64,000 nt of DNA. Source: Massalongia carnosa (Eukaryota). A program made the position numbers and the translations under genes. A model generated the notes under the pieces. That model saw only the letters and a list, made by a program, of their open reading frames with translations, did not search any database and had not been told where the DNA came from. Location: positions 1,674,001-1,738,000 of the forward strand of contig OZ287074.1 of the NCBI GenBank assembly GCA_965645245.1, written 5' to 3'. Positions 6,020 through 56,471 of the stretch are shown here, in pieces (position 1 is the first letter of the stretch; the number at the start of each line of letters is the position of its first letter).

Positions 6020-6099
6020 GGGTCAAAAGGTCAGGCAAAATCTGGGTCGAAAGGTCAGGCAAAATCTGGGTCAAAAGGTCAGGCAAAATCTGGGTCAAA
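6020..6099 (+). repeat. 24-bp tandem repeat x3.3 (GSKGQAKS) inside pol A
   Basis: gggtcaaaaggtcaggcaaaatct repeated. Confidence 0.9.
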
Positions 6100-23903: not shown

Positions 23904-23928
23904 ACTCTGCGCATCGTCGCGCGCAGAG
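23891..23928 (+). promoter_or_regulatory. -1 ribosomal frameshift signal
   Basis: G GGA AAC in gag phase, 7-nt spacer, 8-bp stem ctctgcgc/gcgcagag; same signal at 50208 in D. Confidence 0.85.
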
Positions 23929-26900: not shown

Positions 26901-28282
26901 CGGATCGGCTCCGTCTCCGTCTCATTCAACAGGCACACGACAGCGTAGCAGGTGGCCATCCCGGTCGTTCCAAATGCTACGAACTAATGAATCGATCATA
27001 CTGGTGGCCCAGTATGCATCAAACCGTCAAACGATTCATTCGTAACTGTCACACCTGTAGACGATCCAAACCATCCCGCCAACGATACCAAGGATGGCTA
27101 CGCCCTCTGTCCCCACCCGAACGTCGATGGCGTGACGTTTCCATGGACTACGTAGGTCCGCTGCCTCCGAGCACCTTCATGGGTATAACCTATCGTTATA
27201 TCCTCGTCTTCATCGATCGCCTTTCCAAGATGCGACATTTCGTCCCCACCACCTCCATGGAGGTAGAAGAGGCTGCTAATTCCTTCTACCAAAATGTATG
27301 GAAATTACACGGTCTCCCAGACGCCTTGATTTCGGATCGAGGCACCCAATTCACCTCCGATTTCTGGGACATCATGTGTAAACGGCTTAGAATTGATGCT
27401 AGGCTATCAACCAGTTTTCATCCCGAGACAGATGGCCAAACCGAGAGGGCTAATGCAACCATGGAGCACTATCTTCGGGCATACGTCAATTACATGCAAG
27501 ATGACTGGGCCCAGTACTTACCCGGTGCCGAATTCTCCAGCAATAACACCGACTCCTCCAGCATTCTCGCCTCTCCCTTCCTGGCTAATTATGGACAACA
27601 CCCCAGGGTAGGATTCGAACCCGAAGGGCCCCTTCCGCAAGACCTGACCGCCCAGGGAATCGCTAACCTGATCGCCGCCAATCGATTCGTAGACAAGATG
27701 CGAGACGTAGACACTCACCTACGAGAAGAGATGTTGATCGCGCAGGCCTCATACGAATCTTCCGCCAATGAGAACCGCCGTCCCTGTCCTCGTTATCTTG
27801 TAGGAGACATGGTATGGCTGAACACCCGAAATATCCAGACAGCCCGTCCGGCAGCCAAACTGGACGATCGAAATGTCGGTCCTTACCGAGTCTGTAAGGT
27901 GTTCGCCAACCCTCTTGTTGTTCAACTGGAACTCCCCGACACGGTTAAAATTCATCCGGTCTTTCATGTAAATCTGCTACAACACGACGCAGACGACCCC
28001 CTCCCAGGACAAATTCCCGAGCTTCGCGACCCAATAATAGCCGAAGATGGACAGCGAGAATGGTATGTCAACAGCATTCTGAACTCGAAACTGGACAGAC
28101 GTTATCAACCTCCGCTTCTCAAGTATTTCGTCAACTGGGAAGGACATACCCCCACCTGGGAGCCATTTCACCTACTAACCAACTGTCAACAAGCTCTGGA
28201 CGAATTCCACGAAGCCTATCCTGGTGCATCCGGCCCACATCTCACCCCCTGTTCCATTCCTCGATGTCGCTGTCATGAATAA
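23891..28282 (+). CDS. pol: Pol of element C (PR-RT-RH-IN-chromodomain)
   Basis: Open in -1 frame from GGGAAAC; LIDCGA, YLDD, ETDASD, GGHPG/CHTC, DGQTE, YFVNWEG..TWEP. Confidence 0.96.
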   Translation, partial: GKRLDSAHRRAQSPILISSCLLANSFSPPLQSNTRFSAASALELFETEEAFRDSHLVVSCILRLGRSRIQALNLIDCGASGYAFIDKKFAQTHQIPLHPLKYARRLEGFDGQPALTGNITHVAEVIMDLNGHVERLFLFVTGLKTYPIVLGHPWLRRHQALADFESNSLSLSSSFCLAHCSPHPVKVKAYTGEKFLSPAESQEVWESENYSSNSQILSEKPVLSDKTTPRDSKTTSLENQDISRIEKAIEQGDSPKIRYRSPSSYRTSTQRHAAQQNRNPPVLDVCEIGALNFNYLGRKKSHEMFALSLKEIDHFLGLTQPEPKPEPKPESRLRQETDWAHSKPTYQPNPRSSPSEKKYHLALFRMNQALTQLCSVTEPEPQPLTLQSSVTAEELNAYRERKNVDPAPLLPKQYHDFLDVFSKKESDVLPEHRPYDHAIKLKEGSPIPNQALYGMSRTEIEELRRYLDENLSKGFIRASKSPAASPVMFVKKPGGGLRFCVDYRGLNAITIKNRYPLPLITETLNRLSRAKIFTKLDIISAFNRLRIKEGDEELTAFRTRFGLFESLVLPFGLCNGPASFQHFINDTLREYLDDFCTAYLDDILIYSEIESEHEIHVKRILIKLREAGLQVDITKCKFHVTEVAYLGLIVTTEGIKMDPAKIETVTHWPIPINMKDVQSFLGFANFYRRFVYGFSKIAGPLTNLTKKEVSFQWTDKCQQAFETLKKAFTSELILMHFDPDRPIIVETDASDYVSGGILSQYDNENVLRPIAYFSKKHNPAECNYEIYDKELMAIVRCFEEWRPELEGSAHPISVISDHKNLEYFASTKQLSRRQARWSEFLSRFDFKIVYRPGKAGGKPDALTRRSGDLPKEGDETDERHKHQHQTILKTHNLDDEVAKSFLSTIILAPAFIEQDPESVEHDHEFIEPEPQLDQPAEQTNPGQDPTDVPTQLLWEQALEQDQFSLKVLDMLRNNVRYHNGIQLAECEDKEGILYFRNRRYVPNSDRLRLRLIQQAHDSVAGGHPGRSKCYELMNRSYWWPSMHQTVKRFIRNCHTCRRSKPSRQRYQGWLRPLSPPERRWRDVSMDYVGPLPPSTFMGITYRYILVFIDRLSKMRHFVPTTSMEVEEAANSFYQNVWKLHGLPDALISDRGTQFTSDFWDIMCKRLRIDARLSTSFHPETDGQTERANATMEHYLRAYVNYMQDDWAQYLPGAEFSSNNTDSSSILASPFLANYGQHPRVGFEPEGPLPQDLTAQGIANLIAANRFVDKMRDVDTHLREEMLIAQASYESSANENRRPCPRYLVGDMVWLNTRNIQTARPAAKLDDRNVGPYRVCKVFANPLVVQLELPDTVKIHPVFHVNLLQHDADDPLPGQIPELRDPIIAEDGQREWYVNSILNSKLDRRYQPPLLKYFVNWEGHTPTWEPFHLLTNCQQALDEFHEAYPGASGPHLTPCSIPRCRCHE

Positions 28283-28860
28283 AACTGCTTCGCAGGAGCT
28301 CAGCTCTTGAAAGGGGAGCTACTGTCATGAAATCGAACCAACCCGATCCAGAATCAATCCCGCAGATGAATCTGACTAAGCTCCCGTTCCTCTATTCAGC
28401 TTAGTCAGAATCTCATTAACTAAATCGAGTTTAGACCCCTCTCAACGGCTTCAGGTCAAAGCTGTACCATCACCATCAAAGCGTACCAACGACAGGAGAA
28501 CCTCATCTCCACCTTTTATCGTCAAACACCTCGTCAAACCTTCGTGCCGTACGTCTCCTAATAGGGGGAGATGAACACTGATCGAATCTTCATGCAAAGG
28601 GGTTCGAGACAAATATAAAAGGAAGGACAAGTTAATTAGATTGTTGACTCCTTGTCCGACGTCTTGTATAGCAATCCATCACCTAGCTATAGCCTTATTA
28701 ATAAAGACATCTTGATCACCCAATCCAATTCCTAGGAACATTAGTTCAATCCCCTGCCCAGTCCTTGACAGTATAACTTACCGAAGGCGGATCGTAACAG
28801 ATACCAAAAATCGTACGATTCGTCATAAACGGGATTGGGTTTTCCGTAGAGAAACTCGAC

Positions 28861-29220: not shown

Positions 29221-30239
29221 TGTAATGGGCTACGAGACCAGTAAGCTAATCACGAGCGACACTGATCTCGATAGGGGAAATGCTCAGCGTGAGAGGTGGA
29301 AGATAGCTACTACGTGCTAGTCTCCGAGAGTATACGAGATCCAAAGAACTAATAGAAGTGGAAGTGCTCAGACCAAGAGATCTCGTCCGAGACCCAAACG
29401 TAGGTTGTTCATAGAATAAAGACTAATTGCTAACGAATACTACAGGATTCGTTCTGGTATTTATCCTACTCACCCCAAGCCTATAGCCTTGGGAGCCTTG
29501 GAACCTTAGGAGCCTTGCAACCCACTTCTGACCTTATCGCCTTACATCTAACTATCCCTCAGGATCCATCTACGAACTCGGCGTTCGCTGGATCATCTAG
29601 TCAGCCTCGAGCAGCCTTCTAGACCTTCCCTTGCAAGGTAGAACACTTCTACCTCCGGCTAGATCCCTCACTACATTGCTAGCCCGCCTCTAAACATAAA
29701 GTCTAGACGCCGAGGCTATGTAGCTTCATTTCGCCGTCACCACTACCAACGTAGCGATGGAAGGTTACCTCCGACTGAATCTCTATCTACACTGCGGACC
29801 TGCCTCTAGACACAAGGTCTAGACCACAAGGTCATGTAGGTTGATTCAGCCGACATCACTACCAACGTAGCAATAAAGGTTGAAGCTGAAGTTTACACCG
29901 GGGAGGCCGAGCTCAAGCTGCGTCCAGCTAGCCGTGCCTCCTGCTACAACTCTTGATCCATCAAGAGATCGAGTAGCTCCGAGTAGGCCAGCAGATCCCA
30001 TATAGAGTTCGCGGCTTCTCCACAGGAGTACACCTTACTCCATGGCAATCTACCACCACGGCCTCGACAGGTGTTTGATCTGTAAGCAGTCTAGAACGTA
30101 GGATTCGGAGTTGTATGGCAAGGTGGCGTCGTGTCAACCTCGACGGCTGTGCGACTAAGTACTACGGCCTAGCTCATGCTAGTTAATCCCACAACCGCCG
30201 TAGGCGATCACGTATCCTTCTAGCGCCATCCGTATTACA
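29221..30239. mobile_element. Solo LTR H (1019 bp)
   Basis: tgtaat...attaca, TSD CTTCG; inverted homolog at 43412-44429. Confidence 0.88.
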
Positions 30240-31334
30240 CTTCGTAATTTATTATCACCGCCGCATCCACAAAACTTCCAGCACATGTACTCGGGAATTG
30301 ATGAACAGGTTCTAGAGAACATATGTAACGAGCATAAGCTTGTAGAGCTATACTTTACGAGTGTTACGAATAACACGACCGCGTGAGCTAACCCGAACCT
30401 CTAAAACTTCCTCCTTCTCCCCCTTTCCTACAATTTCCAAATCCCCCTGTACCAACTCAGTAGTATTTTTCTTTCTTGATATATATTTTCGTTTATTCAG
30501 AGCAGTTTTTTAAACCCTAGGTCATCCTCAACTGTCTCCTCAAAAATATTAGGTGTAATCTGAAGAAGGTCGTGAAAAGCGTTTTGAAAGATAGAATCGT
30601 CTCGTTTCTTATTTTTAGGTAAAGATCGAGATGTTACAGGATCAGGCCCGTATATCAGGTCGGGTTCAAGTCGCATAAGGTCTTTAGATACCTGAGAAAA
30701 TAATCGATCGTTCTGTTTTTCTTTCCTTACCTATGATCTAGCCTCTTTCTCATTTTTCTTATTTTCAGCTAATCGTCGGCTAGTCGCTCGCTTAATCCTC
30801 TCCCTCCAAGAAGCATCCGCTTCTAGTCGGGGAAAGCAAACTTCGTAGGAAAGCGAAGCTACGTAGGCTCGCAACGTTAAACTACTACCACATCACTAAA
30901 GCACCACCGCATCATTTAAATTACTATTACATTTACTATCACATTATTATATTAGGGTACGGATAGAAGCACACCCCTTTGGTTACCCACACACCCCCCT
31001 CGGTTACCCACACACCCCCGGTGGTTACCCACGCACCCTACCCTAAAGTAGCTTAAGTTTCTTCGGCCACTTTCCCTTATTGGCTGACCACCTTTCCTAA
31101 CTAGGTTACACCCGTTTGCAAAATGGTGTGCCGAACTTTGAACCCCGAAACTGCGCGGTAAAAAAAAAAATAATAAGCGACAGAATTGGACCACACACTA
31201 GAATTTGGTGCAGTACATAGCTAATAGCCCTCCTCCCCTTCACACTGCCCTTTGCAGTCTATAGGATAATATAGTTAATGATATCCTTTTGATTGTCGTT
31301 TGTATGAACTTTCAACGTAGTTATTCCAGTCATC

Positions 31335-33869: not shown

Positions 33870-36037
33870 GATTAGACCAGTCTTTTTGCAGCCTAGCTAC
33901 TCCGCCTGTGCCTGTATCCCGTGCCAGCTGATTCTGATTATCCCCCCGTGCCAGCTAATTCTGATTATCCCCCCGTGCCAGCTAATTCTGATTGTCCCCC
34001 TGTGCCAGCTAATTCTGATTGTCCCCCCATGCCAGCTGATTTCGGTTGTTTCTTTCTTCCACCTTGTCCCGTCTCTTTTCCTACACCTCGGGGTCGACCT
34101 CGTGGCCTTCCTCGTTTTCCGGGTGCTGGATCGGCTCTTTGTATAACACGTTCCACCTCTGGATCGACTATCTCGTTTATCCCAGCTGTCTCCATCTCGA
34201 CACGTTCGAATTGAGAAGGTACTCGATTGGTAGAGGCCTCAAATGCGATGGTCCTTCTGTTGAGATTCTCAGCTCCTTGAGGACGTCCTCGAGTTCTTGC
34301 CATCTCCGGTTCTTGCACCAATAGTAAGTCATTCCTCGTATTGGCAGGCATGGTTCTCTGAAACCTACAATAGTTAGTAATATCAGGGAAACTCTGAATG
34401 TATCCAATAACCTACCTCCAATGTGGATGAACGTCTTCAATCAACAGACTTCCTTCCTCATACAACCTTTCCTGGATTTTATGACTACATGGAAGTCCAG
34501 TTGTGATGGTGTAAGCATGGGTGCAAGGCCCCAATACTATGGGTCGTCCGACCACAAGATTGTACTGAAGAAGCATCTTTCGTAGGGCATGAGGGGTGAC
34601 GAATCCGGTTAATCGCTGAAACACTGGTTTTCGAAGATCCATGGGAAGTCGGTCTCTGGCTTCGTTGAATGTAATAAGATAGTTGTGAAGTTCATTGATC
34701 AATAGTAAGTTAATGCAATCCACCACCGTCTTCAGATCTCCGGTCGATGATCCCAGCTGACGTTTCAAAACTGCATGACCGCCTTTACCTCGAGATGTCG
34801 TCGTGGTATCAAAATGCAACATCTTGTCAGTGTAGCATTTGACGAAATGATGCCGAAAAGACAAATAAGTTGAGGTGATATACTCCACGCAATTTCCAGG
34901 AATCGTACCACAAAACCGCCCCCATAGTTGCTAGAATTCCGGTTCGGTAGTGGCGTATACGATGGATTTCCAATCAGCAAAGAAGGCATCCCATGCTTCT
35001 TTGGTATCAAAGCTTTTCTTACAACTGGCTACGATGTTGTTGTTGATGTGCCAAATACAAAGAAGATGATTAGTGTTCGGAAATGTCTGATCAATAGCGG
35101 ACATCAAAGCACGTTCCATATCAGTGACGATAACGACTGGATTAGGAAGTTCGAGTTGCAAATACAATGCCTTCAGATGAGACAATACCCACGTGTAATC
35201 GGCGGTGGTTTCTGATGCCATGAAACAGAAAGCCACATAGAAATTTGTATGCAGACTGGTCTGACCACTTACAATAAGAAGAGGCATGCGATATCGATTT
35301 GTCTTGTAGGTGCAGTCCATTACCAACACCTCATAGTTTGTCTTCAGAAGAGTTTGTGAGCTTTCTCTGACGAAGAAGAGATGAGTGATGCGATTCAGCT
35401 CATCTTTCTGCATGTGGTATGTCCAATGCCCTCGATCCAACTCTTGAATCAATGCCTGCACGGGGGTAAGCGGTCCCAGAATGTCGCGACGCATCTGAGC
35501 TTTGTGATTATAGATATCTCGAGGTTTGAAAAGAGGATTAATAATCTGAGGATCGGCCGGATCGTCCGTGTTGACTGATCCCAAAGTGGGATCAGGAATG
35601 CGAAGACTAGATAAAACTTTGGAAGGTGCTACTTGCACTGTTAATTGACGAGATATCTCACTTTTCACTTCTGCTGTCATCGCCATTCTTCTATGAACCG
35701 GATGGGCGCCAGCGAGACTGGACGAATGATTATGTTCCTCATTTACCACCTCCAGAATCCAGGCACCTCCATCTTCTTCTATTCGCTTAGCAGTCAGAAG
35801 AAACGGACATTCTATGCATCTACTGCTGGTATGACGTCTTTTCTGTCCCTGAGGACCTCGGGGCTTTCCTCCTCGATCACAAATCAACCAGGCCTTTCTT
35901 CTTATTCCGAGTTTCGATTTCTTGGTCCGGCTTAACACAATGGCATATCCTTGTGGGGCGGCATGCTCATTAACACGAATAACAAGGTCATCCAGTGATT
36001 CGAAGGATTGTCCATCTTCTGGAGGACGAAGACTCAT
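33870..36037 (-). pseudogene. MULE transposase (FAR1 + MULE DDE), one stop/frameshift near 34930, intron 34365-34415
   Basis: CDRGG..CPF..HNH, MDCTYKTN, VTDMERAL, LCIWHI, TGLPCSH; AT-hook-like GRPRGRPRG; 3' end approximate. Confidence 0.9.
33919..34045 (-). repeat. 27-bp tandem repeat x~4.5 (GGQSELAGT)
   Basis: cgtgccagctaattctgattatccccc variants. Confidence 0.85.
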
Positions 36038-36357
36038 GATGACGACGTGGCGTCAGTAATGCGGGGTATCAATGCAGGGAAAACGCAGAATGAAGATGCA
36101 GGATCAAAATTCCCTAGTTAGGAAAGATGGTCACCCGATAAGGGAAAGTGGCCGAAGAAACTTTTCAAACTTAAGCTACTTTAGGGTGGGGTGTGTGGGT
36201 AACCACCGGGGGTGTGTGGGTAACCGAGGGGGGGTGTGGGTAACCGAGGGGGGTGTGTGGGTAACTGAGGGGTGTGTGTGGGTAACCAAAGGGGTGTGCT
36301 TCTATCCGTACCCTTATATTATTATCACATCATAAATCATTGCTATCTATATCTACA

Positions 36358-39896: not shown

Positions 39897-40353
39897 CGTC
39901 ATGGAATTACCTCGCACCCTTCCACGTTTCCTGATTGGGTAAGTATTTAACAGGCTCTCTTGCCGTGAAACCTGCCCTGCATGTTGAATAGAACCGTAGC
40001 CCGTTATTCCAAACGATCTTGAAACCTCATCCCATGTGTTTAGACGTTCTTCCGCTGCCTTCAGTGCACTCCTAAACTCCTATATCCCGAATCCAACCTC
40101 AACGTCTCCACTATCCAAGCCTGGGACTGGGATTGCCCAGCAGAGAGAGATTGCTTCGGCATGTTTGGAAATTAGAATAGGAACAGAAATGAGGGCAAGT
40201 CAAGAATAGGGGAGTTGGAAGCCATAGCTATAAAACCTATGTCGTTTCTCAGGTGTTTAGAGCTCTTCGTCGGACGTCTTGTATACTATCCCTAGACCTA
40301 GCTTTCTAATAGTAACTCTTGCATATCTCCCTATCTGGACCTTGTCCGTGACA
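39897..40353 (+). mobile_element. Solo LTR J1
   Basis: (c)gtcatgg...ccgtgaca; flanks CCATA/TTATA (TSD with two C>T). Confidence 0.82.
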
Positions 40354-40440
40354 TTATACAGAGCTTGTTATCAGTCTAGCCGTTTTCACGTAGTGAAATA
40401 CGAGCACCCGGTTCCTTATTACTAGGATACCAATCATCTT

Positions 40441-40928
40441 TGTCACGGACAAGGTCCAGATAGGGAGATATTCAAGAGTTACTATTAGAAAGCTAGGTCT
40501 ACGGATAGTATACAAGACGTCCGACGAAGAGCTCCAAACACCTGAGAAACTACATACGTTTTATAGCCATGGCTTCCAACTCCCCTATTCTTGACTTGCC
40601 CTCATCTCTGTTCCTGTTCTAATTTCCTAACCATGATCGCTTTGACCTGTTCCGCCTTTCTCTATGCCGAAGCAATCTCTCTCTGCTGGGCAATCCCAGT
40701 CGTAGGCTTAGATAGTGGAGACGTTGAGATTTGATTCGGGATATAGGAGTTTGGGAGTGCACTGAAGGCAGCGGAAGAACGTCTGAACACATGGGGTGAG
40801 GTTTCAGGATAGTTCGGAATAACGGGCCACGGTTCTATTCAACATGCAGGGCAGGTTTCACGGCAAGAGAGCCTGTTAAATACTAACCCGATCAGGAAAC
40901 GTGGAGGGTACGAGGTAATTCCATGACA
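40441..40928 (-). mobile_element. Solo LTR J2, inverted homolog of J1
   Basis: tgtcacgg...ccatgaca, TSD ATCTT. Confidence 0.9.
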
Positions 40929-43311: not shown

Positions 43312-44505
43312 TGTAACGGTTCGACTATGCGTGGTATAGATGGCAGGACCTATAGCGAACATAGCATGAGTCCTAGTTATAATAGAATAGAGCTTTGTCT
43401 GCGGACTAAGTTGGAATACGGATGGCGCTAGAAGGATACGTGATCGCCTACGGCGGTTGCGAGATTAACTAGCATGAGCCAGGCCGTAGTACTTAGTCGC
43501 ACAGCCGTCGAGGTTGACACGACGCCACCTTGCCATACAACTCCGAATCCTACGTTCTAGACTGCTTACAGATCAAACACCTGTCGAGGCCGTGGTGGTA
43601 GATTGCCATGGAGTAAGGCGAACTCCTGTGGAGAAGCCGTGAACTCTATATGGGATCTACTGGCCTACTCGGAGCTACTCGATCTCTTGATGGATCAAGA
43701 GTTGTAGCAGGAGGCACGGCTAGCTGGACGCAGCTTGAGCTAGGCTCCCCGGTGTAAACTTCAGCTTCAACCTTTATTACTACGTTGGTAGTGATGTCGG
43801 CTGAATGAACCTACATGACCTCGTTGTCTAGACCTTGTGTCTAGAGGCAGGTCCGCAGTGTAGCGAGGTATTCAGTCGGAGGTAACCTTCCATCACTAGG
43901 TAGTGGTGACGGCGAAATGAAGCTACATAGCCTGAGGCATGTAGTGAGGGATCTAGCCGGGGGTAGGATTGTTCTACCTTGCAAGGGAAGATCTAGAAGG
44001 CTGCTCGAGGCTGACTAGATGATCCAGCGAACGCCAAGTTCGCGGATGGATCCTGAGGGATGGTTGGATGTAATGCGATAAAGTCGGATGTGGATTGCAA
44101 GGCTGTAAGGCTCGCAAGGCTCCCAAGGCTTGCAAGGCTCCTAAGGTTCCAAGGCTCCCAAGGCTATAGGCTTAGGGTGAGTAGGATAAATATCAGAACG
44201 AATCTTGTAGTATTCGTTAGCAATTAGTCTTTATTCTATGAACAACCTACGTTTGGGTCTCGGACCAGATCTCTTAGTCCAAGCACTTCCACATCCATTA
44301 GTTCTTTGGATCACATATACTCTCGGAGACTAGCACGTAGTAGCTATCTTCCTCCTCTCACGCTGAGCATTTCCCCTTTCGAGATCAGTGTCGCTCGTGA
44401 TAAGCTTACTGGTCTCGTAGCCCATTATATAAGTATTGTACCTTTTGGTCGGGAAGGATAGGTGGCGCAATGGTAGAAATCTATTTACTATCTTGCTTCG
44501 TCACA
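43312..44505 (+). mobile_element. Solo LTR G (~171 bp) split by LTR H
   Basis: Diverged reverse complement of the 45940/46340 repeats; TSD TGTT(C/T). Confidence 0.87.
43412..44429. mobile_element. Solo LTR H copy 2 (1018 bp)
   Basis: TSD TAAGT; inverted homolog of 29221-30239. Confidence 0.88.
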
Positions 44506-44787: not shown

Positions 44788-45939
44788 GGAGTCACCACAG
44801 TCTAATTTGTGAGTGGTACGATAGGATCCCTGCTAGAGGAGCTGTTGGAAGCAGAGCAGGCCAATATTTATCTAATTACGTTCATCGCCCTCACAGATCC
44901 TATAGTTTATCCGATCTATCGTGAGCCGTGGCTTAGAGCCCTGTTAGATAAGGTTTTGACCTACGAAATCCCTAAGGAAGACTTGGCCGAGCTCTACAGA
45001 TTTGAAGAAGAGAAGCTCCCCCGGAACAAATCGATATATAACTACGGATACCTCCTCGATAATTGCATGAAGACAAACGCCGAGTTGATAACCATCGTGG
45101 TGTAACAGGGGTAGTAATAAGTCACCTAAGCCACTGAGCCAAAAGACTACTATAGTAGTTCTCCTATGGAGACACTACCGCTTATTACACTACATATAGG
45201 TGCCCCGCGCCCGGTACGTCACCGTACCTCCTTAGGCGCTCATGTATTGCGCCCGCTGGCTAGCAGTACTGAGTACCGCTGTAACACGTAGAGGACGATG
45301 TAACTGTAAGGGCAGGGTAGTATGGCAAGGCGATGACCTCGTTAGGAAAAGCCTAGGCGCAAGCAGGAGGTGCGAGTTGGCTATACCTGCGAATTTTTTA
45401 TACAAAGATTTTCTTTGGCTATGTTAGCGAACATTGGCCGCGTTATCTTAGCGCATATCTTGTTTTGTCTGTGGTACTACTTGCCGCCCTTATTAAGTCG
45501 CGTACGCGGTCGTCATTCCTTCGACGAAACCTCTCCCACGTGGGAATTGGTGTAATCGTGCGACACCACCAGTAATCGTTTTCGCTTACTATGCACCCTT
45601 CATTATCTGGTGTGAGGCTAATACTAGACTTCGGATGCTGTTTACAAGGCTTTATCCTTCCTTACGATATCGTATCTGCTTCAGCATATAGGCTTGAAGT
45701 GTTTAAAAGGCCTTGATTACGATGGAAGTGCCGGAGAATTATTCAATTTCGAATTCGAGACATTTCGACCCTGACTTGAAAGCCGGCAGTCTTTAGGCCC
45801 TCATAACATTCGAGAGTGAGATCTAAGTTTAATTAAACCCAGAAACGACCTATCAAGTAGGAGATGCTACTAATTGCCGTTATAGCCTATGGCCGTCATG
45901 CGATATTGCGTTGACGGCTGACCCACTCTTGTGCCAAGG

Positions 45940-46510
45940 TGTGACGAAGCGAGATAGTGAATAGATTTCTACCATTGCGCCACCTGTCCTTCCCGACCAA
46001 AAGGCACAATACTTAGTCCGCAGACCAAGCTCTATTCTACTATAACTGGGTCTCCTGCTATGTTTGCTGTAGGTCCTGCCGTCCGCACCACGCTTGGTCG
46101 AACCGTTACACTACCGCCCGTCTAGCTGCGGCTAGCCCCTAGCCGCTTCCAGTTATAGTTAGCCCCGAAGAATGGGCTCTTCTTAGCGTACCGCCCTCGC
46201 CGATCCGACTTAGAGAGTTTTCATCCAACGCTTTCCCGTTTCGTCCTAGCTTCAGTCCGTCGAAGCAAGGCGAAAAAGCGAGGAACTCAGGTCAGGAATC
46301 GAACTCACGACTAGTACACCAATTGATGACTAAGTATTCTGCGACGAAGCGAGATAGTGAATAGATTTCTACCTTTGCGCCACCTGTCCTTCCCGACCAA
46401 AAGGCACAATACTTAGTCCGCAGACCAAGCTCTATTCTACTATAACTGGGTCTCCTGCTATGTTTGCTGTAGGTCCTGCCGTCCGCACCACGCTTGGTCG
46501 AACCGTTACA
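45940..46510 (-). mobile_element. TRIM-like miniature LTR element (571 bp)
   Basis: 171-bp LTRs 45940-46110 and 46340-46510 (2 differences seen), 229-bp non-coding interior, TSD CAAGG. Confidence 0.92.
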
Positions 46511-46790
46511 CAAGGTTCCGCTTGCAAATGAAGGGAGTCTGGGAACTGCGGAATTAGGAAACAGCTCTTGAAACTTAAAGTATAGAGATACCCCACTCGG
46601 CTTCTTAATAGTATAGAATATGTGACTCTGAAAAACTATCTTGTGTATAACATGTAGAAGATAGCTTGACATCTGAGGACTTGTTTTCTAGGCAGCCCTT
46701 CAATGTAATCCTATCGTGCTTTTCGAAACGTGCATATAACTTTCTGTGACTATTATTCAGATGTTATTTTCGGCAACATGATGTCCTGTA

Positions 46791-48508
46791 TCCGTGCCAC
46801 CCACATCGCTCGGATCGCCTCGCTTAGTGCTAGCCAGCCATACAACCCAAAATGCTACTCCTCTACATACATCGGGGTTTTTTTCAACAATTCCTTCATT
46901 ACTTCCTCCTATCTTTTATGCTATTCATACTTTTGGTCATCTTCAACTTTCGATGAGCTTTGGTTTGTTTAGCAACCTTGCCCAGTGCCAAAGAATATCG
47001 CTTTTCCCATGCGATCATTCGATCCTTCTCCCTCTGAGCCTCCTGATTCTGTCTATAACGAATCATTGATCGAGCCTTTCGTGCAGTAAGTATGCCCCCA
47101 ATCCGAAGTACCTTATTGCTCTCTCGTTTGCGTGCTTTTCGAACTTTTTTGGCCTTTGTTTGTTGATCCCATCGTTGTTCGAGAAGTTTTCCTTTTCGGA
47201 CTTCCGAAACAGCCCCATTTAAAAATTTTGCTATCATTTGTGTAAGTTCATCCGAATAACGGGAATGCATCATAATGTCTGCGGCTACTGTACTCAATTG
47301 TCTGACAGTCCTAGGGGTCTCTTGTATTGATTGAATCGACGAGGGTAGGGTAATCTCGCGGGGGGTAGTAAACTCTCTCTGACCTTTTGAAGAACCACCT
47401 CTGAATTATATGGAATTAGGCCGGTTTTTCTCCATGCAGACGTAATCGTTGTTGATTGGAAGGCCTTTGCCCGAAAGATGTTGAATGCAGCTAGAAATTC
47501 AACTTTCGAGAACGTTTCATCACCGTTCTGAATTGCCTCATTGACAGCCTCGGAATGCCAATGCTTTAAAGGCTGAAACACATATACATCAAGCGGTTGC
47601 AATAAGTGAGTAGTATGTAATGGTAATCCAAATGGAATGATGTTATAAGCGTCCCAATACTCTAAAAACTCACGAGTATGATGAGATCCATGTCCATCCA
47701 TAATCAACTGTCTCCATGCCCCCTTTCGAATGTTTCGAGAGTGTTTATCGAAGTGTTTAATCCATTGCAAGGCAAGCCAGTCATTTGAAGAACCTGATTC
47801 AGCAGTAGTAATAAGAACATCATTGCTAAGATCGTTGAGGAAAAAGGGAGCGAGAATGCTGATACCAGTCAAAATCAGCATAAGGGGAATATCTCGTCTA
47901 GTCCCATTGATACATTCCATTCCGGTCAGTGATTCTCTGTTTGATGGATCTTTATTGTAGATACTTCGGTCTTTTGATGTACTGACTATCCAATCATTAC
48001 GTGCCATGCCAATGCGATACCCGGTTTCATCAAAATTCCACTGATCTTGAGGATCTATGCCATACTCATTAATTATCTCTTTGTATTTTGTAAAGTGAGG
48101 CATTAGCAACTCTAAATCATGCGCATTTTTTCGCTTAACAGCTAGAGGTTTTCGTCGAACTTTGAATAAATCGGGCTGACGATTTAACCATATCTTGGTC
48201 CACTGCGACCCGATCAAAGGAGGCGGTTCCGAAACAGGAGATGATTGACGAGGAATAGAATTTGCTGCGATTTCCATCATGTGCAATCGGGCAGGTATGT
48301 TCAAAGAGTCCAGTTTCTTGATATATATATATAAGGCCGACTCTTGATCCGGTTTCAGACGTCTAGTATGCGGTCCTCGTATCTCTGATTTAGATGGGGC
48401 CCCATGATATCGAGAACGAAGTCTTTCTCTAGGCACTTCAAATTCTCGTGCAATTGCTCGAACTTTCGCGTTTTTCCGCGTGTTTAAGGCGTCAATAGCC
48501 TTCGTAAT
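46791..48508 (-). mobile_element. pogo/Fot1-type transposon P2 (related to P1), 5' end missing beyond element D
   Basis: TA|tccgtgcc..gcctcgcttagtgctagcc TIR; WNFDETG, IMDGHGSH, HLLQPLDV; frameshift near 47300-47350. Confidence 0.92.
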
Positions 48509-49026
48509 TGTCATGAAATCGAACCAACCCGATCCAGAATCAATCCCGCAGATGAATCTGACTAAGCTCCCGTTCCTCTATTCAGCTTAGTCAGAATCTC
48601 ATTAACTAAATCGAGTTTAGACCCCTCTCAACGGCTTCAGGTCAAAGCTGTACCATCACCATCAAAGCGTACCAACGACAGGAGAACCTCATCTCCACCT
48701 TTTATCGTCAAACACCTCGTCAAACCTTCGTGCCGTACGTCTCCTAATAGTGGGAGATGAACACTGATGGAATCTTCATGCAAAGGGGTTCGAGACAAAT
48801 ATAAAAGGAAGGACAAGTTAATTAGATAGTTGACTCCTTGTCCGACGTCTTGTATAGCAATCCATCACCTAGCTATAGCCTTATTAATAAAGACATCTTG
48901 ATCACCCAATCCAATTCCTAGGAACATTAGTTCAATCCCCTGCCCAGTCCTTGACATTACGTCGGACCTACATCGAAAGGTGCCTTTCATAGCACTAGCC
49001 CCTGTCCCCCCTCATATTCCACCATC

Positions 49027-50220
49027 ATGTCTTCGTCTTCAGAAGAGATGACCGTCCCCCAAAATCCTCTCATCGACGAGAACGTGAAGTTGTTTCAAAA
49101 CCAGTTCCAAACCAATCCTGAAGCATTCGTCGCGGAAATACGACGACTTCAAGACGAGGTGGCCCGGTTGCAGGCCGCCCCAGCTCCCGACCCCCCTATA
49201 CCCACTCCAGCATCAACCTCGTCTCCCTCGTCCGTTCCGGCAATGGACCCTCAGATAGCTGCCCTCCTGCAGCTCCTTTTGACCCGGAATTCCGAGTCCA
49301 AAACCGATCTTCGTTCCGAAAAACTTCCCGACATCTCCGAGTACGATGGAGATGAAGCCAAGTTGGACTCCTGGGAACAGAGCCTGATTCAACGGATGCA
49401 CGTTAATCATGATCGATACTCCACCGATGCCTCCAAGATTGCATACGCGGAGAATCGGCTCACCATCGGGAAACGAGCTCACAACCTTATGAATGCGTAT
49501 CGAGTGGATGGCATTTGTAGACTCACCACCTTCTCCGAATGGCGTTCTGCTCTTCGCCTAGCCTGCGGCAACCCCTTCGAACAAGAGGATGCCCGTAAGT
49601 ACCTTCGAGAAACCCTCAAGCAGGGCTCTCTGAGTTTCGAAGAGTACAACACTCTCTTCTCTCAGAAAAAAGACCGATCCAGAATGGAAGACGCTTCGTT
49701 GATTGATGCCATGAAGGCAAACATCAACTACTCCGTTCAAACCGCGGCCGTCCACTACCGAGTCCCCGGCACCAATCTGGAGCCAATCACCTTCGACGAG
49801 CACGTCGCAATGTGGTTAAGCACGGACCGGAAAATCCGTCAGATCCGTCATCTGGCACCCAAGGCCACGACTCCGGCCACATCAGCTCCCGCCAATCGAA
49901 GAAACGGCACCAACCTTCCTGCTGCCCCTTTCCCCCGCACTGTCGTCACGGGCACGGTCACCCCATTGATCCCAACCCCCGCCTTCCCCCCAGCTGGAGA
50001 CCCCATGGACCTAAGTCAGGCCATGGCGGCTGTCAAAGGTCAGTCGTTGAAAACCGAGGGAGTAAGGAAGATCTGCGAGAATTGGAACCTGTGCTTCTAT
50101 TGCAAATTGCAACACCTCGGGTCGGCCTCCGACTGTCCAAATAAGCCTACCAAACGCCTTCGCAACATGGAAGTCGTCTCGACCCTCACTCCCGAGACTG
50201 ACGACTCGGGAAACGTCTAG
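49027..50220 (+). CDS. gag: Gag of element D
   Basis: Protein identical to 22710-23903. Confidence 0.93.
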   Translation: MSSSSEEMTVPQNPLIDENVKLFQNQFQTNPEAFVAEIRRLQDEVARLQAAPAPDPPIPTPASTSSPSSVPAMDPQIAALLQLLLTRNSESKTDLRSEKLPDISEYDGDEAKLDSWEQSLIQRMHVNHDRYSTDASKIAYAENRLTIGKRAHNLMNAYRVDGICRLTTFSEWRSALRLACGNPFEQEDARKYLRETLKQGSLSFEEYNTLFSQKKDRSRMEDASLIDAMKANINYSVQTAAVHYRVPGTNLEPITFDEHVAMWLSTDRKIRQIRHLAPKATTPATSAPANRRNGTNLPAAPFPRTVVTGTVTPLIPTPAFPPAGDPMDLSQAMAAVKGQSLKTEGVRKICENWNLCFYCKLQHLGSASDCPNKPTKRLRNMEVVSTLTPETDDSGNV

Positions 50221-53200
50221 ACTCTGCGCATCGTCGCGCGCAGAGCCCTATTTTAATTTCTTCTTGTCTGTTAGCCAACTCGTTTTCTCCCCCCCTTCAA
50301 TCAAACACTCGTTTTTCCGCAGCCTCCGCTTTGGAGCTGTTTGAAACCGAAGAAGCGTTTCGAGATAGCCACCTAGTGGTATCATGTATCTTACGTATAG
50401 GTAGATCTCGAATTCAAGCTCTCAATCTGATTGATTGTGGTGCATCTGGCTATGCATTCATTGACAAGAAGTTTGCGCAAACTCACCAAATCCCCCTTCA
50501 TCCCCTCAAATACGCCCGACGCCTTGAAGGCTTCGACGGTCAGCCGGCTCTGACTGGAAATATCACTCATGTGGCCGAGGTAATCATGAACTTAAACGGA
50601 CATGTAGAAAGATTATTCCTTTTCGTAACAGAACTGAAAACCTACCCCATCGTCCTGGGACACCCGTGGTTGCGACGACATCAAGCTCTCGCTGATTTCG
50701 AGTCCAACTCTCTCTCCCTGTCTTCCTCTTTCTGCCTGGCTCATTGTAGCCCTCATCCAGTCAAGGTGAAGGCCTACACGGGCGAGAAATTCCTATCTCC
50801 TGCGGAAAGTCAGGAAGTATGGGAATCGGAAAACTACTCGTCCAATAGTCAAATCCTGTCCGAAAAACCTGTCCTGTCCGATAAAACCACGCCGCGCGAT
50901 AGTAAGACAACTTCTCTCGAAAATCAGGACATCAGTCGTATCGAAAAAGCGATTGAACAGGGCGACTCACCGAAAATCCGATATCGAAGTCCCTCTTCGT
51001 ATCGCACCTCCACTCAGCGACATGCTGCCCAGCAGAATCGCAATCCTCCTGTTTTGGACGTCTGTGAAATCGGCGCCCTCAACTTCAACTATCTCGGACG
51101 AAAAAAGAGTCACGAGATGTTTGCTCTCTCCTTGAAAGAAATCGATCACTTTCTCGGCCTGACTCAACCTGAACCTAAGCCTGAACCCAAACCCGAATCT
51201 CGCCTTCGTCAAGAGACTGACTGGGCACACTCGAAACCAACCTACCAACCCAACCCCCGGTCCAGCCCTAGTGAAAAGAAATATCACTTAGCCCTGTTCC
51301 GTATGAACCAGGCTCTGACACAGTTATGTTCAGTGACCGAACCCGAACCTCAACCCTTGACACTGCAATCATCAGTGACCGCCGAAGAACTGAACGCTTA
51401 TCGTGAGCGAAAGAACGTCGACCCAGCCCCCCTTCTACCCAAACAGTATCACGACTTTCTGGATGTCTTCTCCAAAAAAGAATCGGACGTCCTGCCCGAA
51501 CACCGACCCTACGACCATGCCATAAAGCTAAAAGAAGGCTCTCCAATCCCGAATCAAGCTCTTTATGGCATGAGTCGAACCGAAATCGAAGAACTCCGAC
51601 GCTACCTTGATGAGAACCTGTCGAAAGGCTTCATCCGAGCTAGTAAATCCCCCGCTGCCTCCCCAGTCATGTTCGTAAAAAAGCCAGGAGGAGGACTTCG
51701 CTTCTGTGTCGACTATCGAGGCCTCAATGCCATCACGATTAAGAATCGGTATCCGCTTCCCCTGATCACCGAAACCCTGAATCGCCTGAGTCGGGCTAAG
51801 ATATTCACCAAGCTGGACATTATTTCAGCGTTCAATCGGCTCCGCATCAAGGAAGGAGATGAAGAACTCACCGCATTCAGAACCCGTTTTGGCCTCTTCG
51901 AATCCCTGGTCCTACCATTCGGCCTCTGTAACGGCCCCGCCTCCTTTCAACACTTCATCAATGATACTCTTCGAGAGTATCTCGACGACTTTTGCACGGC
52001 CTATCTAGATGACATTCTCATCTACAGCGAAATTGAAGGCGAGCATGAAATCCACGTCAAACGTATCCTCATCAAGCTGAGAGAAGCCGGGCTGCAAGTA
52101 GACATCACCAAATGCAAATTTCATGTCACAGAAGTTGCCTATCTCGGACTAATCGTAACCACCGAGGGAATCAAAATGGACCCCGCTAAAATCGAAACAG
52201 TAACTCATTGGCCAATACCGATCAATATGAAAGATGTACAAAGCTTTCTGGGATTTGCTAACTTCTATAGACGATTCGTATACGGCTTTAGTAAGATAGC
52301 CGGCCCACTGACGAATCTAACCAAAAAGGAGGTCAGCTTTCAATGGACTGACAAATGTCAACAGGCATTCGAAACTCTAAAAAAAGCTTTCACCTCGGAA
52401 CTAATACTGATGCATTTCGATCCCGATCGTCCTATCATCGTGGAAACCGATGCTTCGGACTACGTCTCTGGTGGTATCCTTTCTCAGTATGACAACGAGA
52501 ACGTGCTTCGCCCCATCGCATACTTCTCCAAGAAACACAACCCGGCCGAATGCAATTATGAGATCTATGACAAGGAACTCATGGCCATCGTCCGATGCTT
52601 CGAAGAATGGAGACCGGAATTGGAAGGTTCTGCTCACCCTATCAGCGTTATCTCAGATCATAAGAATTTGGAATACTTCGCTTCAACCAAACAACTCAGT
52701 CGTCGTCAAGCTCGCTGGTCCGAATTCTTATCCCGATTTGACTTTAAAATAGTCTATCGACCCGGAAAAGCTGGTGGAAAACCAGATGCACTGACTCGTC
52801 GCTCAGGAGACCTCCCTAAAGAGGGGGATGAAACTGATGAAAGACATAAACATCAGCATCAAACCATCCTGAAAACTCATAACCTGGACGACGAAGTGGC
52901 GAAAAGTTTCTTATCCACGATTATCCTAGCCCCCGCGTTCATCGAACAGGATCCCGAGTCCGTTGAACATGATCACGAGTTCATTGAACCTGAACCACAG
53001 CTGGATCAGCCTGCCGACCAAACCAATCCTGGCCAAGACCCGACCGACGTCCCAACTCAGCTGTTATGGGAACAAGCTCTGGAACAGGATCAATTCTCTC
53101 TGAAAGTTCTAGACATGCTTCGCAATAATGTCAGATATCATAACGGCATTCAGCTAGCCGAATGTGAAGATAAAGAAGGGATTCTTTATTTTCGAAACCG

Positions 53201-54536
53201 TCGATACGTACCCAATTCGGATCGGCTCCGTCTCCGTCTCATTCAACAGGCACACGACAGCGTAGCAGGTGGCCATCCCGGTCGTTCCAAATGCTACGAA
53301 CTAATGAATCGATCATACTGGTGGCCCAGTATGCATCAAACCGTCAAACGATTCATTCGTAACTGTCACACCTGTAGACGATCCAAACCATCCCGCCAAC
53401 GATACCAAGGATGGCTACGCCCTCTGTCCCCACCCGAACGTCGATGGCGTAACGTTTCCATGGACTACGTAGGTCCGCTGCCTCCGAGCACCTTCATGGG
53501 TATAACCTATCGTTATATCCTCGTCTTCATCGATCGCCTTTCCAAGATGCGACATTTCGTCCCCACCACCTCCATGGAGGTAGAAGAGGCTGCTAACTCC
53601 TTCTACCAAAATGTATGGAAATTACACGGTCTCCCAGACGCCTTGATTTCGGATCGAGGCACCCAATTCACCTCCGATTTCTGGGACATCATGTGTAAAC
53701 GGCTTAGAATTGATGCTAGGCTATCAACCAGTTTTCATCCCGAGACAGATGGCCAAACCGAGAGGGCTAATGCAACCATGGAACACTATCTTCGGGCATA
53801 CGTCAATTACATGCAAGATGACTGGGCCCAGTACTTACCCGGTGCCGAATTCTCCAGCAATAACACCGACTCCTCCAGCATTCTCGCCTCTCCCTTCCTG
53901 GCTAATTATGGACAACACCCCAGGGTAGGATTCGAACCCGAAGAGCCCCTTCCGCAAGACCTGACCGCCCAGGGAATCGCTAACCTGATCGCCGCCAATC
54001 GATTCGTAGACAAGATGCGAGACGTAGACACTCACCTACGAGAAGAGATGTTGATCGCGCAGGCCTCATACGAATCTTCCGCCAATGAGAACCGCCGTCC
54101 CTGTCCTCGTTATCTTGTAGGAGACATGGTATGGCTGAACACCCGAAATATCCAGACAGCCCGTCCGGCAGCCAAACTGGACGATCGAAATGTCGGTCCT
54201 TACCGAGTCTGTAAGGTGTTCGCCAACCCTCTTGTTGTTCAACTGGAACTCCCCGACACGGTTAAAATTCATCCGGTCTTTCATGTAAATCTGCTACAAC
54301 ACGACGCAGACGACCCCCTCCCAGGACAAATTCCCGAGCTTCGCGACCCAATAATAGCCGAAGATGGACAGCGAGAATGGTATGTCAACAGCATTCTGAA
54401 CTCGAAACTGGACAGACGTTATCAACCTCCGCTTCTCAAACTGTCAACAAGCTCTGGACGAATTCCACGAAGCCTATCCTGGTGCATCCGGCCCACATCT
54501 CACCCCCTGTTCCATTCCTCGATGTCGCTGTCATGA
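50208..54536 (+). CDS. pol: Pol of element D; chromodomain destroyed by a 59-bp deletion at 54439/54440
   Basis: Seven amino-acid differences from C plus frameshifted C-terminus. Confidence 0.93.
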   Translation, partial: GKRLDSAHRRAQSPILISSCLLANSFSPPLQSNTRFSAASALELFETEEAFRDSHLVVSCILRIGRSRIQALNLIDCGASGYAFIDKKFAQTHQIPLHPLKYARRLEGFDGQPALTGNITHVAEVIMNLNGHVERLFLFVTELKTYPIVLGHPWLRRHQALADFESNSLSLSSSFCLAHCSPHPVKVKAYTGEKFLSPAESQEVWESENYSSNSQILSEKPVLSDKTTPRDSKTTSLENQDISRIEKAIEQGDSPKIRYRSPSSYRTSTQRHAAQQNRNPPVLDVCEIGALNFNYLGRKKSHEMFALSLKEIDHFLGLTQPEPKPEPKPESRLRQETDWAHSKPTYQPNPRSSPSEKKYHLALFRMNQALTQLCSVTEPEPQPLTLQSSVTAEELNAYRERKNVDPAPLLPKQYHDFLDVFSKKESDVLPEHRPYDHAIKLKEGSPIPNQALYGMSRTEIEELRRYLDENLSKGFIRASKSPAASPVMFVKKPGGGLRFCVDYRGLNAITIKNRYPLPLITETLNRLSRAKIFTKLDIISAFNRLRIKEGDEELTAFRTRFGLFESLVLPFGLCNGPASFQHFINDTLREYLDDFCTAYLDDILIYSEIEGEHEIHVKRILIKLREAGLQVDITKCKFHVTEVAYLGLIVTTEGIKMDPAKIETVTHWPIPINMKDVQSFLGFANFYRRFVYGFSKIAGPLTNLTKKEVSFQWTDKCQQAFETLKKAFTSELILMHFDPDRPIIVETDASDYVSGGILSQYDNENVLRPIAYFSKKHNPAECNYEIYDKELMAIVRCFEEWRPELEGSAHPISVISDHKNLEYFASTKQLSRRQARWSEFLSRFDFKIVYRPGKAGGKPDALTRRSGDLPKEGDETDERHKHQHQTILKTHNLDDEVAKSFLSTIILAPAFIEQDPESVEHDHEFIEPEPQLDQPADQTNPGQDPTDVPTQLLWEQALEQDQFSLKVLDMLRNNVRYHNGIQLAECEDKEGILYFRNRRYVPNSDRLRLRLIQQAHDSVAGGHPGRSKCYELMNRSYWWPSMHQTVKRFIRNCHTCRRSKPSRQRYQGWLRPLSPPERRWRNVSMDYVGPLPPSTFMGITYRYILVFIDRLSKMRHFVPTTSMEVEEAANSFYQNVWKLHGLPDALISDRGTQFTSDFWDIMCKRLRIDARLSTSFHPETDGQTERANATMEHYLRAYVNYMQDDWAQYLPGAEFSSNNTDSSSILASPFLANYGQHPRVGFEPEEPLPQDLTAQGIANLIAANRFVDKMRDVDTHLREEMLIAQASYESSANENRRPCPRYLVGDMVWLNTRNIQTARPAAKLDDRNVGPYRVCKVFANPLVVQLELPDTVKIHPVFHVNLLQHDADDPLPGQIPELRDPIIAEDGQREWYVNSILNSKLDRRYQPPLLKLSTSSGRIPRSLSWCIRPTSHPLFHSSMSLS

Positions 54537-55028
54537 ATAAAACTGCTTCGCAGGAGCTCAGCTCTTGAAAGGGGAGCTACTGTCATGAAATCGAACCAAC
54601 CCGATCCAGAATCAATCCCGCAGATGAATCTGACTAAGCTCCCGTTCCTCTATTCAGCTTAGTCAGAATCTCATTAACTAAATCGAGTTTAGACCCCTCT
54701 CAACGGCTTCAGGTCAAAGCTGTACCATCACCATCAAAGCGTACCAACGACAGGAGAACCTCATCTCCACCTTTTATCGTCAAACACCTCGTCAAACCTT
54801 CGTGCCGTACGTCTCCTAATAGGGGGAGATGAACACTGATGGAATCTTCATGCAAAGGGGTTCGAGACAAATATAAAAGGAAGGACAAGTTAATTAGATA
54901 GTTGACTCCTTGTCCGACGTCTTGTATAGCAATCCATCACCTAGCTATAGCCTTATTAATAAAGACATCTTGATCACCCAATCCAATTCCTAGGAACATT
55001 AGTTCAATCCCCTGCCCAGTCCTTGACA

Positions 55029-55277
55029 GTCAAACACCTCGTCAAACCTTCGTGCCGTACGTCTCCTAATAAGGGGAGATGAACACTGATCGAATCTTCA
55101 TGCAAAGGGGTTCGAGACAAATATAAAAGGAAGGACAAGTTAATTAGATAGTTGACTCCTTGTCCGACGTCTTGTATAGCAATCATCACCTAGCTATAGC
55201 CTTATTAATAAAGACATCTTGATCACCCAATCCAATTCCTAGGAACATTAGTTCAATCCCCTGCCCAGTCCTTGACA
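55029..55277 (+). mobile_element. 3' half of another C/D-family LTR
   Basis: Begins mid-LTR (gtcaaacacctc), ends ccttgaca, carries private variants. Confidence 0.92.
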
Positions 55278-56471
55278 CTTCCCATATTTCTACCGAATTC
55301 ATCAAGTTTTGCAACGAAAAGAAAATCTTTCTTTTGTGTCTACCTCCACATACTACCCATATGTTGCAACCTCTAGACGTGAGTGTTTTTGGGCCCTTAT
55401 CACGGGAGTACAAAAAACAATTGGAGGTCGTCACCCGATTCAACGTCTGTTCAGTGGACAAGGTAGATTTTCTGAAGATCATTCAAAAAGCAAGAAAAGA
55501 AGCAATCAACACAAAAAACGTGCTGACTGCATGGAGAGCAATCGGATTAGTACCATACAATCCGTCATCAGTTCTTCAAAAACTCACTAATAAACAATCG
55601 GTGTTGCGAAAGACTGATAGCATTATCACCACCACCACCACTACTACCACCACCACGAATATCACCTCCTCTCATCCTAACACTCCGACAACCCTTCAAA
55701 ACTCTCACGAAATTGAAAAGACACCTGCAAATATCGATCAAATAAATCAACTGATTCGTCGAATTCGAAATGATGAAGAATCAGACTCGACTCCCGTTCG
55801 AGCGCTAAATAAATTGATAAAAGGCGCTAAATATGCCTTCGCAGACTCTACCTTGCTACGTATCACCAACAACGAGCTTCTTCAGGCCAATGTACGGCGC
55901 CATCATCGAGCCAATCGTAGCGGGGCTCACTATGGAGGAAAGGCTCGAGTTCTAAGCCTTGAAGACGTTCAACAAAGACAGCAATGGGCCAAAGATAAAC
56001 AAAAGGTGAAAGACGAAAAAAAGAATGCCGCTCAGCTAAAACGAGCTGAGCAGGACCTTATCAAAACTTTCAGGGAAATGTGTCGATTTGGACCTGATTT
56101 ACTAGGACAAACGTCTACTGTATCTTCGACGAAAAGTCCTCAGAAAAGTCCTTAGAAAGCACCTGATAGTTCACAAAGTAAGCCTATTTGTTCTTTTCAA
56201 AGACGATTACTACCTCCTCCCGTGCTTCAACCAATGACAGAAGAGGTAGAGGGGGTGGAGGAGGTAAAGGTCAGTGGGGGGTAGAGGTGGAGGTGGAGGT
56301 GGTGGAGGAGGTGAAGAAGGTTCAAACTACCAGACGGGGTCGTATTGTATGCATGCAGACAAAATATCAATTTCACGACGAATTTGTATGTGAGAGGAAG
56401 GCTGTAGAAATTAAGCGAAATTTAGTTAGTCCTGTTGCCCAGTGAGTTACGTTAAGCGAGGCCGACCGAGT
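55278..56471 (+). mobile_element. 3' part of pogo/Fot1-type transposon P3
   Basis: SHISTEFIKFC..LPPHTTHMLQPLDVSVFGPL (ORF to 56155); terminus taagcgaggccgaccgagt|TA. Confidence 0.87.

Follow-up and report, generated by a model that had tools for sequence, protein, structure and literature searches.

Structure of the element and its locus

In the window (the whole stretch of DNA analysed, 64,000 nucleotides), Ty3/gypsy elements and DNA transposons form a nest next to genes of Sac1 type and Tti2. For the Tti2 piece, the closest named relatives belonged to lichen-forming ascomycetes (45–47% identity), and the host was therefore taken to be a filamentous ascomycete. Within the nest, a 571-bp element lies on the minus strand at 45940–46510; element positions 1–571 run along that strand (window coordinate = 46511 minus position), and the features given below by element position are on it. 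The TSD CAAGG was read at 46511–46515 on the 5′ side and at 45935–45939 on the 3′ side. Between these are a 171-bp 5′ LTR (TGTAAC...CA, positions 1–171, 46340–46510), a 229-bp interior without an ORF of its own and a 171-bp 3′ LTR (45940–46110, minus strand), the two LTRs differing by mismatches at positions 137 and 169. The sole listed frame touching the interior (46292–46687, 131 aa) had no match in Pfam, and a search of the element against Rfam found nothing, its one match having E = 3.9.

The 5′ LTR contains a TATA-like motif of putative function, the non-canonical TATAGTA (positions 67–73, 46438–46444), 26 nt upstream of the predicted self-primer GACTAAGTATT (positions 93–103, 46408–46418), which would form the 5′ end of the RNA. 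After the LTR, a single spacer base, G (46339, minus strand), precedes the PBS AATACTTAGTC (positions 173–183, 46328–46338), which is the exact reverse complement of the predicted primer (46338–46328 against 46418–46408); pairing ends at 11 nt. A purine-rich tract, AGACGGGCGGTAG (46111–46123, minus strand, 10 of 13 purines), adjoins the 3′ LTR and is the predicted plus-strand primer. A preliminary description of this DNA had reported the LTRs, TSD and non-coding interior, the 11-nt complementarity to the element's own 5′ LTR and the purine-rich tract, and all were read as described; the TATA-like motif that it placed about 25 nt before the primer is present, although not in canonical form. Its view that the element keeps only cis signals has to be extended by a pair of boxes, A and B, of tRNA-like type, which it missed.

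A second 11-nt inverted repeat has one arm in the interior (46149–46159, minus strand) and the other in U3 of the 3′ LTR (46039–46049), where the TATA-like motif doubles as part of the arm. This repeat encloses the purine-rich tract in the predicted RNA fold (z = −3.3 for a region picked after the repeat was seen).

The element has the structural features of a TRIM: a length below 1000 bp, LTRs within 100–250 bp, no coding sequence, a PBS and a PPT. The narrower wording in the accessible part of PMC6934838 asks that the PBS complement a tRNA, and the PBS here matches tRNAs over no more than 8 nt (31 host tRNA loci); the element is filed as a TRIM variant on the structural definition in the accessible part of PMC10886601 only. 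An older solo LTR of the same family (86–95% identity) lies in the window at 43312–44505 on the plus strand, split by a 1018-bp LTR of another family (43412–44429, TSD TAAGT).

Copy number, insertions and solo LTRs

The genome search covered a 52-Mb assembly in 25 contigs. All 40 copies scored, out of 463 candidates, were near full length and 95–100% identical to the element. Thirty copies were read: 23 had exact 5-bp TSDs, all different, and nine had identical LTRs. The exact junction between LTR end and PBS occurred 53 times in the genome (30 + 11 loci read and 12 coinciding with copies from the similarity search), and every one leads into the TRIM interior; a few of these loci are interrupted by later insertions. 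A 14-mer from the B box of the interior had 71 exact sites, 70 in TRIM interiors and one in a tRNA-Met gene (12 previously unseen sites were read and the remainder matched by place). LTR candidates numbered 561 against 91 interiors, and 15 of 17 young unpaired LTRs were solo LTRs with a TSD; two have common flanks.

These results establish a real, young, non-autonomous multi-copy family that was recently mobile. They show that the 571-bp unit spreads through insertions of integrase type, which leave 5-bp TSDs, and that it decays to solo LTRs. The preliminary description had called for a search for copies with distinct TSDs, and had named as fatal a single copy produced by deletion of a full-length element after insertion. 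A one-off deletion is almost certainly wrong, and for the family it is refuted: the interior is common to dozens of independent insertions with distinct TSDs, it holds 70 of the 71 B-box 14-mers, and no long element with this LTR was present among the 53 junctions and 17 unpaired LTRs.

Some loci were related to one another. The pairs L111/L112 and L051/L072 have identical solo-LTR flanks or the same break point at position 249, which suggests segmental duplications. TRIM copies were often hit by later insertions (L071, L310, L320, L053, L063, L061, L074 and window 43312–44505), some of which are TRIM LTRs that entered the LTR of a TRIM copy, facing one way or the other; several of the insertions lie between positions 40 and 130. 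A locus on contig C9 at 713 kb, considered as a tandem array, was rejected as such and is a case of self-nesting. Assembled contigs from four sequencing runs cover the element, a kind of data that cannot reveal RNA starts; none of the variants listed for them touches the primer or the PBS, and a fold-back joint was likewise not listed, which was counted neither way.

Primer-binding site and priming route

Shuffling the LTR produced a PBS match of at least 11 nt, starting 0–5 nt after the LTR, in 6 of 20,000 shuffles. The PBS does not start with TGG, and its longest antisense match to host tRNAs was 8 nt among 31 loci, an incomplete set in which Tyr, Ile, His, Trp and Val tRNAs were not identified. 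Conservation was counted over the 40 copies found by similarity: departures occupied 1 of 440 cells in the 5′ primer, 2 of 440 in the PBS and 6 of 440 in the 3′-LTR twin of the 11-mer. Primer and PBS together thus had 3 departures in 880 cells, against 1.85% at all non-CpG sites; in the comparison with the twin, the fairest control, the signal was weak, Fisher's test giving p = 0.07 on copies that share ancestry and are not independent. No compensatory primer/PBS change was present in 40 + 12 copies, which are too alike to reveal one. In one copy (L014, G000:C21:1249350-1249920) the spacer is C instead of G and the primer/PBS pairing grows to 14 nt; this may be a longer-primer copy or a plain mutation, and two other copies have A at that base.

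In Tf1, the RNA's initial 11 bases pair with the PBS and RNase H cuts between bases 11 and 12 (PMC7175516, accessible part). The present element has the arrangement of Tf1/sushi elements, with 11 of 11 PBS bases complementary to a segment of the 5′ LTR. For Tf1, a "pretzel" of three duplexes around the PBS is described (10.1101/2022.12.06.519325, accessible part); in the TRIM it is not clearly recognizable, since the best R-leader helix is 9 bp and was equalled by 34 of 500 shuffles, the U5 hairpin is weak and shuffled versions of the 5′ region fold equally well (z = −0.3). From its sequence, the element probably self-primes in the manner of Tf1, and self-priming is the best-supported of the priming routes.

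The following course is proposed. The RNA would start at or near position 93, 26 nt past the TATA-like motif, and its first 11 nt, which are complementary to the PBS, would pair with it. By analogy with Tf1, helper RNase H would cut after nt 11, reverse transcriptase would extend the 11-mer through U5 and R and then jump to the 3′ R, and the purine tract would prime the plus strand. Gag, reverse transcriptase and integrase would be supplied in trans by a self-priming Ty3/gypsy family.

Priming might instead come from outside, a tRNA 3′ end or anticodon half binding the PBS while the LTR match is structural or a relic. Fungal Helenus elements, Ty5 and copia are precedents, and the incomplete tRNA set leaves room for such a primer; it was the anticodon loop that was tested, because most fungal Helenus use anticodon-loop primers (PMC10886601, accessible part). 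Against an outside primer, however, stand the 8-nt limit and the start other than TGG, and it leaves the self-match found in 6 of 20,000 shuffles unexplained. Anticodon registers were tested with the tRNA invariants at positions 33 and 37: the sole register with U at 33 is Leu(AAG), which requires a pyrimidine at 37, and the host tRNA-Leu(AAG) (L180) does not match. An outside primer is accordingly regarded as improbable.

Putative Pol III signals

The LTR/PBS junction is flanked by tRNA-type A and B boxes, which may be a Pol III promoter, a TFIIIC barrier or a relic. The A box region (positions 129–142, 46369–46382; TGGCGCAATGGTAG in most copies) matches host tRNA-Arg(CCT) in sense at 14 of 14 bases, and the B box region (positions 200–215, 46296–46311; GTCGTGAGTTCGATTC) matches the T arm of host elongator tRNA-Met in sense at 16 of 16. 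Of 20,000 resampled sequences, 19 contained an A + B box pair, and a 16-nt match was seen in 0 of 2,000; the pair was present in none of seven other LTR families tested. The A box proper (129–139) is in the LTR and the B box (207–215) in the interior, so that the two are not both within the LTR as in Helenus. Promoter motifs derived from a small RNA and of Pol III type, as in TRIMp3, are present. In the copy studied, the A box of the 5′ LTR is mutated (T to A at position 137); that of the 3′ LTR is intact (45972–45982) and has no B box after it.

The boxes are 78 nt apart (43–127 in host tRNA genes), and, with G-U counted, 5 of the 7 positions in the acceptor stem and 3 of the 5 in the T stem can pair in register. 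A T5 run (positions 234–238, 46273–46277) lies at the place expected of a tRNA-gene terminator and is kept in 29 of 30 copies. Host tRNA bodies had T5 in 0 of 28 cases and T4 in five, and the first run of at least five T after a host tRNA gene was exactly T5 in 9 of 18 (L172 and L184 were omitted from the box lists, and L184 from the spacing and T-run counts); for this reason the T5 run probably terminates Pol III in the element.

Other observations argue against a Pol III promoter for full-length RNA: the A box, with 9 departures in 440 cells, is no more conserved than background (B box, 3 of 440), the 5′ A box is mutated in this copy, the T5 run intervenes, and the geometry is unfavourable. 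Usual A-box geometry would put a Pol III start near 104–113, past the primer, in conflict with an RNA start at 93. In favour of such a promoter, the TATA-like motif would set the start near 93–97; by eye, it lies about 5–20 nt further from the A box than the AT-rich tracts upstream of four host tRNA genes. Judged from the sequence, it is doubtful that Pol III drives the genomic RNA.

A primer of the element's own sequence on another molecule or end was also weighed. A short Pol III RNA ending at 234–238 would make strong-stop DNA that jumps to full-length RNA, or the 11-mer in the 3′ R would fold back. The tRNA-gene order and spacing of the A box, B box and T5 run, and the T5 statistics above, suit the short RNA; a primer at the 3′ end, however, has little or no terminal redundancy for the strand jump, and the cis route of Tf1 accounts for the same sequence in fewer steps. 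This possibility has a low probability, and priming in cis is retained.

A more far-reaching proposal, possible and on balance unlikely, would dispense with both a tRNA primer and a Pol II promoter. A split tRNA-type promoter would exist only at the junction of 5′ LTR and interior (A box in the LTR, B box in the interior), so that the 3′ LTR and solo LTRs would be silent. The TATA-set start at 93 would give the exact 5′ end needed for self-priming, the T5 run would divide the transcripts between a short RNA that bears the primer and genomes made by read-through, and the same self-match would yield integrating fold-back dimers and hence long perfect inverted repeats in the genome.

As to where the boxes came from, no tRNA-SINE donor was found: all 12 unseen B-box sites were older TRIM copies. 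In a metagenome contig, a tRNA-Met-like gene (L285:300-390, minus strand) was observed to hold both the TRIM's A-box 12-mer and the T-arm motif, so that a single Met-type tRNA could be the source of both boxes. A metagenome scan for the layout of A box, LTR end and B box gave 0 of 120 loci resembling the element, among the loci listed.

Inverted dimeric insertions

One locus (L041, contig C7, 2359172–2360038) consists, in order, of an inverted 3′ LTR, inverted interior and PBS, inverted U5-R, PBS, interior and 3′ LTR. Its arms are identical over 388 of 388 bp, both of its ends are U5 ends, and the TSD CAAAA is on both flanks. The two arms meet within the primer/PBS match, where the spacer base replaces R position 104. 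Among 21 full-length copies, only 1 of 210 pairs is identical over that 388-bp stretch, which makes two insertions fused by deletion unlikely, and unique flanks argue against an assembly fold-back. A pattern search gave two further fold-back junctions, L061 and L063, which have the R base and the spacer base, respectively; the right end of L061 was lost to a nested element and L063 has no TSD, so that one of the three junctions has a valid TSD. A 229-bp stretch beside L063, considered as a second interior, was rejected: it is mostly the LTR of another family, and its length is therefore taken as a coincidence.

The two-U5-end structure may be explained by nascent cDNA ends that sometimes anneal at the inverted LTR twin of the PBS, this twin being the reason why inverted dimers can arise. 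The minus-strand end, having copied the PBS, would anneal to primer-region cDNA rather than to the plus-strand end; a second annealing at the PBS would lead to the interior being copied again, and the one-base mismatch would be settled in favour of either base. In Tf1, the PBS at the 3′ end stays single-stranded on about half of the cDNA (PMC11042837, accessible part), and such an end would serve this path. The dimers indicate that reverse-transcription intermediates use the primer/PBS match. The junction itself requires just an inverted match, and neither maps the RNA start nor excludes an outside primer, under which the same product would form. An integrated dimer preserves, as a genomic fossil, a reverse-transcription intermediate that mis-annealed, and it is one way in which long perfect inverted repeats can arise; such repeats are a possible source of hairpin RNA or instability.

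Coexisting LTR families and candidate helpers

The window contains four full-length Ty3/gypsy elements, at 1073–8817 (+), 9302–15806 (−), 22192–28770 (+) and 48509–55028 (+), in three families that each have a 9-nt self-complementary PBS of their own sequence. Chromodomains are present in 1073–8817 and 9302–15806, and 22192–28770 and 48509–55028 are 99.7% identical; an extra 250-bp LTR piece (55029–55277) follows the last. Element A (7.7 kb; window 1560–8524) has short tandem repeats inside pol, with 20-bp units at 6919–7115, an extended region separating RNase H from the integrase zinc finger, and pol in several frames. PBSs of self-complementary type are frequent across the genome: in window elements A, B and C they are 9 nt long and follow a 2–3-nt spacer, and in families N, L092 and L084 they have 11–12 nt and a spacer of one base. 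The translated families are Ty3/gypsy with a Tf2-type SH3 domain and, in two, a chromodomain. Family N is a 6.3-kb Ty3/gypsy with LTRs 98–100% identical and a stop interrupting pol in the copy translated.

The autonomous element with the same LTR that the preliminary description had proposed to find was absent: no such parent occurred among the 53 junctions and 17 young unpaired LTRs, and no coding element with the TRIM's LTR was found in the genome. Sequence in common with elements A, B, C, N and X did not exceed 12–14 nt, the chance level. N and L092 match the layout of the TRIM (one base, AAT, 11 nt) and not its sequence, and they are candidate helpers on account of that layout. By architecture, the best fit for a helper would be the group in which a single spacer base precedes an 11-nt PBS that begins with AAT. 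A primer in cis means that the helper need not share primer sequence. The preliminary description had seen in the element a minimal parasite of self-priming chromoviruses; this is plausible in that such elements occupy the window and the genome, but none of them has the TRIM's LTR, primer or interior. For the same reason, simple deletion from one of the elements seen does not account for the TRIM; it may have arisen remotely, through deletion from a parent now extinct.

Family X, with a 1-kb LTR that begins TGTAATGG and holds GACTAAGTAC near its end, was rejected as a primer-sharing helper: no X LTR leads into a TRIM-type PBS, and after the 5′ LTR of X comes another self-complementary site. 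X has many solo copies with TSDs, including window 29221–30264 and 43412–44429. A full-length X (L308, G000:C21:1308100-1316900) is 8.3 kb long with a 5-bp TSD and an 8-nt self-complementary PBS; it has no ORF above 155 aa, and X may therefore be a large non-coding, LARD-like family.

Comparison with described elements

At the priming step the element is Tf1-like, in its boxes it is Helenus-like, and it is a member of neither group; structurally it is a TRIM. Citations in this section refer to the accessible parts of the sources. As in Tf1/sushi elements, the PBS comes right after the 5′ LTR, complements 11 nt inside the LTR downstream of a TATA-like motif, and has no tRNA complement, in the present case among 31 host tRNA loci (PMC7175516, PMC4600332, 10.1101/2022.12.06.519325, PMC6934838). 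Those elements encode Gag-Pol, whereas this one is non-coding and 571 bp long, and tRNA boxes are not mentioned for them in the text consulted.

Features in common with Helenus/TRIMp3 (Kojima 2024, PMC10886601) are a TRIM length below 1.3 kb, A and B boxes of tRNA-like type, TSDs of 5 bp in fungi, a large number of solo LTRs and a degenerate cloverleaf. Helenus, in contrast, has both boxes in each LTR and uses tRNA 3′-end or anticodon-loop primers, whereas here the boxes are divided between LTR and interior, the PBS is self-complementary, and no PBS of either tRNA type was recognized among the 31 host tRNA loci. In fungi, Helenus is linked to helpers of the Copia type, and reports of it are confined to rusts and Agaricomycetes (PMC10886601), whereas the present host is an ascomycete. 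The author found no complementarity between the tRNA-like part of the Helenus LTR and the PBS, and the words "self" and "Ascomyc" are absent from the main text (PMC10886601). Cassandra, a 5S-derived TRIM described in PMC10886601 as the validated Pol III TRIM, is likewise a short non-coding LTR element with Pol III promoter motifs; its promoter is of 5S type and wholly in the LTR, it is a plant element and its transcription has been shown.

Classical TRIMs of plants, bivalves, insects and cestodes are also below 1 kb with 100–250-bp terminal repeats, non-coding, provided with PBS, PPT and TSD, and often without an identified partner (PMC6934838, PMC13570524). By the definition quoted in PMC6934838, however, their PBS is tRNA-complementary, unlike that of this element. 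In a sugar-beet survey all six PBS motifs were of tRNA type, the screen having required this, and biv-TRIM has no canonical PBS, with no mechanism proposed in those texts (PMC6934838, PMC13570524). Screens that demand a tRNA-type PBS would overlook families such as the present one.

In the literature searched, with most subscription papers and Repbase outside its scope, neither a self-priming TRIM nor such a fold-back integrant was described in the text available. The element would combine two traits so far described apart in the texts consulted, the Tf1-type self-priming of autonomous elements and the tRNA-derived Pol III boxes of tRNA-primed Helenus TRIMs. With its 571 bp it is naturally suited, as a minimal substrate, to two questions: what a self-priming reverse transcriptase/RNase H acting in trans requires of the RNA, and whether helper and parasite need have any sequence in common.

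Other features of the locus

An element of about 990 bp at 39918–40908 in the window has inverted arms of about 435 bp (94–95% complementary) and a short centre, and is MITE- or foldback-like; part of it resembles the family C LTR near its primer. Frames for MULE transposase and DDE_1 (pogo/Tc1-type) transposase lie at 33965–36052 (−), 46899–48577 (−) and 55223–56155 (+), and the frame at 47294–48577 meets the end of a Ty3/gypsy copy at 48509. Elsewhere in the genome, ARAGORN called a nuclear tRNA (L175, G000:C4:350250-350430) whose anticodon is TCA and whose variable arm is long, labelled SeC; its body looks Leu/Ser-like, it is unusual in an ascomycete, and it may be a miscall or a suppressor.
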